Positions 30,859-31,134 of a stretch of DNA of 64,000 nt are shown here, piece by piece; position 1 is the stretch's first letter; each line of letters begins with the position of its first letter. A model generated the notes under the pieces. That model was not told the DNA's origin and did no database searches. It saw nothing but the letters and a program-made list of their open reading frames with translations. A program made the position numbers and the translations under genes. The DNA comes from Escherichia coli (GTDB taxonomy: Bacteria; Pseudomonadota; Gammaproteobacteria; Enterobacterales; Enterobacteriaceae), in assembly GCF_003018255.1 (NCBI RefSeq), contig NZ_CP027440.1. The stretch is one strand, 5' to 3'.

Positions 30859-30966
30859 GTCGAGTCGAACCTCCCCGCCCCCGGGGGTTCTCTTCCTCAT
30901 GAGCTACAGATGCAAAAAAGCCTGCTCGTTGAGCAGGCTTTTCGAATTTGGTCGGTGATAGAGGAT
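30859..30966. repeat. 108-bp direct repeat, distal copy (hairpin-terminator plus 19-nt tRNA-Pro 3'-end fragment)
   Basis: Near-identical to 31027..31134 at an offset of 168 bp; contains GCAAAAAAGCCTGCTCGTTGAGCAGGCTTTT and TGGTCGGTGATAGAGGATT, then diverges from the tRNA body. Confidence 0.85.
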
Positions 30967-31026
30967 TACTCGCCACTTCGTGGCTCGCCCTGCGGGCCGT
31001 TGCTGGCGCAACGTTCTCTCGCTTCG

Positions 31027-31134
31027 CTCGAGTCGAACCTCCCTGCCCCCGGAGGTTCTCATCCTCATAGGCTACAAATGCAAAAAAGCCTGCTCGTTGA
31101 GCAGGCTTTTCGAATTTGGTCGGTGATAGAGGAT
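31027..31134. repeat. 108-bp direct repeat, proximal copy (overlaps the proK terminator and tRNA 3' end)
   Basis: Partner of 30859..30966; separated from it by a unique 60-bp spacer (30967..31026). Confidence 0.85.
31079..31111 (-). terminator. intrinsic terminator of proK
   Basis: Minus strand reads AAAGCCTGCTCAACGAGCAGGCTTTTTTGC, a GC stem plus T-tract immediately 3' of the tRNA. Confidence 0.75.

Follow-up and report, generated by a model that had tools for sequence, protein, structure and literature searches.

At tRNA genes, the attachment (att) site of an integrating element typically takes the form of a direct repeat of the tRNA 3' end, beginning in the T loop. Such a repeat lies next to proK in the stretch of Escherichia coli DNA analyzed here (contig NZ_CP027440.1; 64,000 nucleotides, hereafter the window), and it raises the question of whether an element once integrated at this tRNA gene or whether the duplication arose in another manner. 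The initial annotation regarded the repeat as the attL/attR footprint of a site-specific integration, possibly the scar of an excised element, and named a conserved structured repeat as a fallback. The results described below make it very probable that the region is a proK-linked array of the RtT RNA element, a structured-repeat relative of the 178-bp repeats of tyrT, and that its tRNA-end duplication is not an integrase crossover.

Organization of the repeat at proK

The tRNA-Pro(CGG) gene proK (31117..31193, minus strand) was called by ARAGORN as the sole tRNA gene of the window, scored 60.7 bits with the Rfam tRNA model, and is annotated between eptB and dppA in an identical RefSeq genome. 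The plus-strand sequence at 31117-31135, TGGTCGGTGATAGAGGATT, represents its 3'-terminal 19 nt from the T loop to the CCA, which is included. A consensus scan detected a promoter-like site (TTGACG, 17 nt, TAAGAT; 31206..31234, minus strand; 9 of 12 matches) that ends 12 nt upstream of the 5' end of the tRNA and, judged from its position and sequence, probably functions as the proK promoter.

The repeat finder detected one family of direct repeats (D1), which comprises two copies of 108 nt each at 30860-30967 and 31028-31135 with 94% identity and a start-to-start distance of 168. A match of this length and identity far exceeds chance. Each copy contains the 3'-terminal 19 nt of proK, the adjacent hairpin and about 55 nt beyond it, as the initial annotation had described; the repeat finder confirmed the size and the spacing, and ARAGORN and RNA folding together with the repeat finder confirmed the content. 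The proximal copy (31028..31135, minus strand; also recovered by pairwise alignment) consists of the proK 3' end, a terminator (T1) and the first 55 nt of a full RtT element. The distal copy (30860..30967, minus strand) consists of a pseudo-tRNA end, a second terminator (T2) and the 5' part of a truncated RtT. The initial annotation also mentioned a T-arm-like motif and a palindrome in the repeat unit. Both are present, the motif as GGAGGTTCGACTC; the palindrome, CCCCCGGGGG, occurs in the distal copy only, and the proximal copy has CCCCCGGAGG instead.

When the region was searched against Rfam, one complete RtT element (RF00391) was detected at 30949..31082 on the minus strand (cmscan 100.9 bits, E 9e-21, model positions 1-130 of 130; gathering score, 45 bits), and the same match was recovered in a scan of the whole window. 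Three pieces make up this match: the proximal copy contributes its distal 55 nt, the interval between the copies all of its 60 nt (30968-31027), and the distal copy its 19-nt pseudo-tRNA end. The element starts 34 nt past the CCA end of proK on the same strand, and its 3' end is identical to that of proK at 19 of 19 nt. This 3' end is the pseudo-tRNA end (AAUCCUCUAUCACCGACCA; 30949..30967, minus strand), which is identical to proK positions 59-76. The interval (30968..31027, minus strand) is the RtT core and carries helices P4', P5, P8 and P6, in which compensatory changes are seen among 44 RtT copies. The initial annotation had called it a unique spacer, which is correct within the window only, as it is a conserved core with relatives in the RtT units of tyrTV in E. 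coli genomes (80-84% identity). Thus, the fallback of a conserved structured repeat was the appropriate one, and the locus contains a full-length member of an RNA family. The label 'RtT sRNA' (RefSeq PGAP) is present at the same position in an identical genome (NZ_AP045067.1) and in thousands of other genomes; further, a 771-bp query from the window was 100% identical to E. coli JNE23-011. The proK RtT is therefore a known and routinely annotated family member, of which the notable features are its copy-number polymorphism and the presence of a terminator in each unit.

On the minus strand, the 168-bp unit reads from the 19-nt tRNA 3' end through the terminator hairpin and the 55-nt RtT 5' part to the 60-nt RtT core. 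The repeat is better described as a head-to-tail tandem array with a period of 168 bp and 1.64 copies than as two copies flanking unrelated DNA. The array starts in the T loop within proK, and 1.64 units further on it is cut off by a REP element. At this end, only the 5' 55 nt of a second RtT remain (30860..30914, minus strand), which terminate at GGTTCGACTCGA, the start of the REP sequence. The REP/BIME itself (30774..30855; Rfam naRNA4, which is REP-derived, 62.6 bits) borders the array, lies outside the repeat and sets its distal end. Tandem Repeats Finder reported no array at proK, presumably because 1.64 copies are too few.

Comparison of the truncated distal RtT (30860-30914) with the corresponding part of the full element (31028-31082) revealed mutations at positions that are nearly invariant in the family (AUGAGAA to AAGAGAA and CCUCC to CCCCC), which fall in the conserved loop and in one stem segment. 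The terminal partial copy retains the consensus in K-12 and three other strains, and the decay of the distal copy is therefore lineage-specific.

T1 (31084..31110, minus strand; detected as palindromic arm I1 and by RNA folding) directly follows the CCA of proK, and T2 (30916..30942, minus strand; repeat finder and RNA folding) is its duplicate. The hairpin, AAAAGCCUGCUCAACGAGCAGGCUUUUUU, has a predicted folding energy of -18.2 kcal/mol at both sites, with z scores of -4.55 (T1) and -4.93 (T2). The fold contains 13 pairs, with a G/C-rich core of 8 that is extended by A-U pairs, and is followed by a run of six U residues. A G/C-rich hairpin with a U run is the definition of an intrinsic (factor-independent) terminator, and as modeled the proK hairpin is one. 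A simple consensus terminator scan missed both T1 and T2, and folding revealed both clearly.

The proK array resembles the RtT/rttR element of tyrT (RF00391) in several respects. Both belong to the same covariance-model family over the full length, immediately follow a tRNA gene in the same orientation, have units that end in the 19-nt 3' end of the cognate tRNA, and form head-to-tail arrays of about 170-180 bp per unit with variable copy number. The tyrTV locus of K-12 has four copies of RtT, all of which terminate with the 3' 19 nt of tRNA-Tyr. In contrast to tyrT, the proK RtT is associated with tRNA-Pro(CGG) and has stems matched anew to this tRNA, the unit is 168 bp instead of 178 bp, a strong terminator is situated between the CCA and the next RtT, where the tyrT linker possesses none, and the array is truncated by a REP element. 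The 178-bp repeats of tyrT were reportedly described by Egan and Landy in 1978 and Rossi et al. in 1981. Our literature searches found no description of an RtT linked to proK. To our knowledge, the proK RtT has never been studied experimentally, because it is absent from K-12. The rttR/RtT element and the tyrT repeats are attributed to Bosl and Kersten (1991), as cited in PMC3318445 and PMC4986893.

Copy number in E. coli and the question of integration

We surveyed the copy number of the unit in 5,426 complete E. coli genomes, essentially all of which possess the locus. At least one full proK-type RtT unit was present in 2,679 of the 5,426 genomes (49%) and at least two full units in 465 (8.6%). 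Exactly one full unit, as in the window, was found in approximately 41%, and the remaining approximately 51%, including K-12 and O157:H7, carry a single 108-nt copy without a full unit. The classes of strains (0, 1 or at least 2 full units) differ by exact 168-bp units. Further, the distal junction with the REP element was identical in 5 of 5 aligned E. coli strains, irrespective of copy number. There were 842 genomes without a contiguous match; in an evenly spaced sample of these, essentially all were explained by a third repeat copy, IS621 or IS1397, and this sample excludes an island-bearing class above approximately 2.5%, such that a rarer class would be missed. Likewise, the classes of the locus with less than 80% coverage were accounted for by IS insertions and additional 168-bp units. 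We concluded that the polymorphism at proK is one of tandem-repeat copy number and not of the presence or absence of an island.

The two insertion sequences are located in the neighboring REP element and not between the repeat copies. IS621 (IS110 family) lies inside the REP/BIME of strain TK3046 (locus sequence L002, 1415-2395), and IS1397 (IS3 family) lies inside that of strain S1-ISR-02-A (L003, 1101-2449). Each of the two classes represents a few percent of complete genomes, as estimated from the spread sample.

Copy number probably changes through unequal homologous recombination between the 108-bp repeats. A single-copy locus has no 60-nt core and cannot supply one, and Salmonella, Citrobacter and many other genera possess full RtT units at proK; therefore, the K-12 state, with no full unit, appears to be a deletion generated by recombination between 108-nt repeats, and the three-copy state would be the reciprocal gain. 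The proK RtT is dispensable in E. coli, given that about half of the genomes have no full unit. Within this species, RtT was found at two loci only, tyrTV and proK, with a median of 5 places per genome; in K-12, the tally is four RtT at tyrTV and a partial unit at proK.

These results bear directly on the proposal that a phage, an ICE or an island entered the 3' end of proK and was later excised or decayed. The 19-nt duplication is real, and a direct repeat of a tRNA 3' end from the T loop is what such sites and the proK array share. Unlike an att site, however, the proK array has no integrase, cargo, attP counterpart or island-sized polymorphism, and the repeat is not confined to the tRNA or a crossover segment but continues past the tRNA end, with 89 of its 108 nt outside the tRNA, into the terminator and RtT. 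What separates the copies is a conserved structured-RNA core and not cargo, and strains differ only by 168-bp units. The initial annotation had noted no integrase or cargo genes, and this was so in every strain inspected; the neighbors were always dppA and eptB, and the only insertions between or beside the repeats were IS621 and IS1397 in the REP element. It had also proposed that the proK-dppA interval be compared across Enterobacteriaceae and that the spacer be searched against phage and ICE att sites. The former comparison showed no cargo between the copies in any sampled E. coli class, and the latter search detected no attP or core counterpart, as no genuine phage record (among 50,697) or genuine plasmid carries the spacer or the repeat. 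A further suggestion was that the scar would be disproved by a duplication present in all E. coli genomes with no strain bearing an insertion between the copies. The duplication is missing from about half of the genomes, and no island lies between the copies in the sampled classes. Moreover, the same architecture is present behind seven different tRNA genes in three orders among the matches listed (see below). The att-scar explanation is thus already largely refuted and, in our judgment, very improbable.

In contrast, the RtT explanation accounts for the duplication directly. The tRNA-end duplication is intrinsic to the RtT unit, and since RtT carries the 3' end of its cognate tRNA wherever it occurs, the duplicated end of proK is explained without an integrase. 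The idea of an integration scar at proK can be dropped. The RtT family was described in 1978-1991. In gamma-proteobacteria, a duplicated tRNA 3' end next to a Tyr, Pro, Lys, Arg or Ser gene should be checked for RtT before it is called an att site.

The searches of phages and plasmids with the repeat or the core alone yielded only complete phage tRNA-Pro genes and mislabeled chromosomal fragments. The latter were PLSDB entries NZ_CP079141.1 (L127) and CP088590.1 (L128), which are filed as plasmids, and INPHARED entries AFYI01000003.1, AGRM01000003.1 and OR850888.1, which are filed as phages. Such misfiled fragments, for example of the narI-tyrTV-purU region or Salmonella contigs of 0.5 Mb, can yield false matches to mobile elements.

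RtT units behind other tRNA genes

To place the proK unit in its family, we scanned 100,044 species genomes once with a degenerate pattern of the RtT core and called tRNAs with ARAGORN, which yielded at least 120 loci from other genera. Among the matches listed, RtT occurs in Enterobacterales, Gilliamella and several Oceanospirillales, behind seven types of tRNA gene: Tyr(GTA), Pro(CGG), Pro(TGG), Lys(TTT), Arg(CCG), Arg(ACG) and Ser(GGA). Among these matches (at least 120 loci), the first RtT of an array, as marked by its GGTTCGA motif, is situated 75-90 nt past the tRNA. The 3' end of RtT copies that of its own upstream tRNA in nearly all of the at least 120 loci, with a few decayed ends as the exceptions, and the 5' strand of the T stem that precedes the conserved GGTTCGA is usually cognate as well among the matches listed. 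RtT linked to proK was found, among these matches, in Citrobacter, Pluralibacter, Phytobacter, Trabulsiella, Atlantibacter, Siccibacter, Kluyvera and E. whittamii. Salmonella fragments showed the same proK-RtT arrangement with approximately 90% identity to E. coli. The terminator hairpin is kept in the proK arrays of other genera with a different sequence, and a hairpin follows each CCA in nearly all of their proK-linked units, again among the matches listed.

Several loci showed a different arrangement. In Xenorhabdus arrays (L080, L124) and in some Citrobacter (Citrobacter sp. MGH106, L106), Phytobacter and Kosakonia loci, the core lies inside an otherwise complete tRNA-Lys or tRNA-Tyr, between T-loop positions 58 and 59; in Xenorhabdus, 3 or 4 such units follow a normal tRNA-Lys gene in tandem. 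In L106, L080, L124, L075, L035 and L119, a complete 5' portion of tRNA-Tyr or tRNA-Lys is fused to an RtT core, and these units resemble tRNA genes whose T loop has received about 65 nt of additional sequence. The fused tRNA part in Citrobacter sp. MGH106 is 100% identical to the neighboring tRNA, which points to a recent event. Such forms could mean that RtT originated from a tRNA gene whose T loop had acquired an insertion. They could also result from a deletion that joined the T arm of a tRNA to the T-arm-like segment within an RtT further downstream, which is simpler and is favored by the MGH106 locus.

One possible interpretation of these data is that RtT is, or was, a small non-autonomous mobile element that targets the T loops or 3' ends of tRNA genes, such that the duplication is its insertion footprint and the arrays arose by repeated insertion or amplification. 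One core is attached to seven different tRNA genes, and it must therefore have moved between loci at least several times; further, the position of the core between nucleotides 58 and 59 of a complete tRNA in Xenorhabdus, some Citrobacter and Kosakonia is as expected of an insertion. However, no transposase, no terminal inverted repeats longer than 5 nt and no consistent target duplication could be defined, and RtT was not found in the phages or plasmids searched. In addition, the tRNA-fused forms are more simply explained by deletion, and in E. coli only tyrTV and proK bear RtT. We consider a mobile element of this type to be quite unlikely.

Structure and possible roles of the RtT unit

We aligned 44 non-redundant RtT units from the seven tRNA contexts and counted base pairs for several candidate structures. 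The minimum free energy structure of the RtT in the window (30949-31082, minus strand) is a closed form with -50.9 kcal/mol and a z score of -2.26. In this fold, the 5' arm forms a closing helix with the copied 3' strand of the T stem, which leaves a tRNA-like tail ending in ACCA free.

Helix P5 (columns 65-70 with 80-85) was paired in 97.7% of cells, with compensatory changes in 4 of 6 pairs, and P6 (columns 99-103 with 108-112), which is missing from the Rfam model, was paired in 88%, with compensatory changes in 4 of 5 pairs. The single pair 45-62 was formed in 44 of 44 sequences with five pair types. It corresponds to 31038 and 31022 of the window in the minus-strand RtT and is GC in 22 sequences, CG in 15, UA in 5, AU in 1 and UG in 1. 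The Rfam consensus does not include this pair and joins columns 47-48 with 57-58 instead (P4). The latter pairs never vary and provide no evidence of covariation; in this alignment, the predicted alternative P4', which includes pair 45-62, is better supported than the P4 of Rfam.

The closing helix P1 (columns 7-14 with 120-127) was paired in 78% of cells and contains 5 compensatory pairs. Its partners are the 5' arm and the copied 3' strand of the T stem with the first acceptor nucleotides. The Tyr type has about 8 P1 pairs and most Lys copies have about 7, compared with 4-6 in the Pro type, in which P1 is weakest (4 pairs, a bulge and 2 pairs). The mean number of P1 pairs was 7.2 when the strands were taken from one amino-acid type and 4.2 when they were taken from different types, indicating that P1 tracks the identity of the tRNA. 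Helix P2 of Rfam is poorly formed in the Pro type.

Other pairings involve the same segments. The 3' strand of P1 can pair with the 5' strand of the T stem instead of the 5' arm, forming an alternative T stem (columns 35-39 with 120-124; 94.8% paired, 3 compensatory pairs). The 5' arm can pair with the segment after the AUGAGAA loop (columns 10-14 with 22-26; 79% paired, 3 compensatory pairs), and this segment, together with an invariant GAAC, can pair with the region of GGUUC (columns 19-26 with 35-42; 90% paired, 2 compensatory pairs). There are four T-stem-like segments, and therefore two mutually exclusive folds are possible. Overall, 87-89% of cells were paired compared with 37-48% when the partners were slid, and the counts exceeded both controls, although the shuffle control ignores the relatedness of the sequences and the structures were derived in part from the same 44 sequences. 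The pair counts from this alignment thus support the RtT helices rather than prove them.

A compensatory change was also found within the Pro type (CCACGAAGUGG versus CCGCGCAGCGG). Across the seven types, the segments follow the host tRNA, which suggests, as far as can be judged from an alignment, selection on pairing with the tRNA-like 3' end. A more speculative proposal, to which we give little weight, is that RtT is not just a passive by-product but a portable RNA module that joined different tRNA operons and re-tailored four segments (the 5' arm, its partner and the 5' and 3' strands of the T stem) to the host tRNA, with two exclusive folds: a closed form, in which the 5' arm pairs with the 3' strand, and a tRNA-like form, in which a T arm is formed with the core inserted in its loop. 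If it were true, RtT might compete for or time the processing of tRNA 3' ends, and some mechanism would have to move the core between tRNA loci.

In sequence, the unit resembles pseudo-tRNA or tRNA-like 3' modules such as the tRNA-like domain of tmRNA. It possesses the 3' strand of the T stem, the acceptor 3' strand and CCA, as well as the 5' strand of the T stem followed by GGUUCGA. In contrast to these modules, RtT lacks a complete acceptor helix, and its T loop is interrupted by the core of about 65 nt.

A coding role was also considered, namely that the repeat encodes a small arginine-rich protein similar to tpr, which is annotated as a 'protamine-like protein' within the repeats of tyrT. 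An ORF of 54 aa (30904-31068, minus strand) has the AUG in the conserved AUGAGAA loop as its start codon, and tpr is annotated at the equivalent place in K-12. However, among the copies linked to Pro and Tyr genes this ORF ranged in length between 5 and 80 aa, its frame was shifted by 1-nt indels, and some copies possess GUG instead of AUG. Because neither length nor frame of the loop ORF is conserved, the constraint is on base pairing and not on coding; conservation tracks base pairs, not codons. The tpr-like ORF was rejected on the grounds of length and frame, and we regard a protein product as hardly credible.

There is also the view that the proK unit of E. coli is a functionless relic, a tandem duplication whose copy number drifts and which is not transcribed or put to any use. 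The approximately 51% of genomes without a full unit, K-12 and O157:H7 among them, the position of the unit behind a strong terminator and the mutated conserved positions of the truncated distal copy would be consistent with this. However, the full unit is approximately 90% identical between E. coli and Salmonella, the helices are maintained by compensatory changes within the Pro type, as noted above for CCACGAAGUGG and CCGCGCAGCGG, and the terminator hairpin is kept in other genera with different sequences. On balance, we consider a relic unlikely.

As regards expression of the proK RtT array, transcription from the promoter-like site would mostly stop at T1. By analogy with tyrT, a transcript that reads through T1 would take in RtT and stop at T2; alternatively, RtT might be trimmed at its own CCA-plus-trailer by the enzymes of tRNA 3'-end maturation. 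The product would then be, again as for tyrT, a stable by-product RNA, in which the closing helix leaves the tRNA-like tail free. Since it lies behind a strong intrinsic terminator, the proK RtT may be transcribed weakly. Processing of a tRNA operon transcript that sets free a discrete RtT RNA is reported for tyrT only (Bosl and Kersten, 1991, as cited in PMC3318445). The RNA from the tyrT operon has been connected with the amino-acid starvation response, and the cellular role of the tyrT RtT RNA is regarded as unknown (PMC3318445; PMC4986893; PMC7542023; bioRxiv 10.1101/2024.07.17.603846). Taken as a family, RtT is a widespread and structurally constrained RNA, and its proK copy is present, absent or multiplied among E. 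coli strains. This natural variation in copy number offers isogenic-like contrasts for testing the role of RtT.

Other RNA families were detected elsewhere in the window. Four tandem matches to the rdlD antitoxin RNA with a spacing of 483 bp (starting at 21186, 21669, 22152 and 22635) lie at 21186-22700 on the plus strand and represent an array of ldr/rdl long direct repeats. At 42390-42817 on the plus strand, the cspA thermoregulator was matched over its full length (497.8 bits), and the sok antitoxin RNA of a hok/sok-type locus was found approximately 300 bp past it, at 43100-43251 on the minus strand. Further, two short matches to the ES036 (CssrF) sRNA family, which scored just over the gathering score, were detected at 28496-28538 (plus strand) and 61997-62039 (minus strand) and probably represent another class of dispersed repeat.
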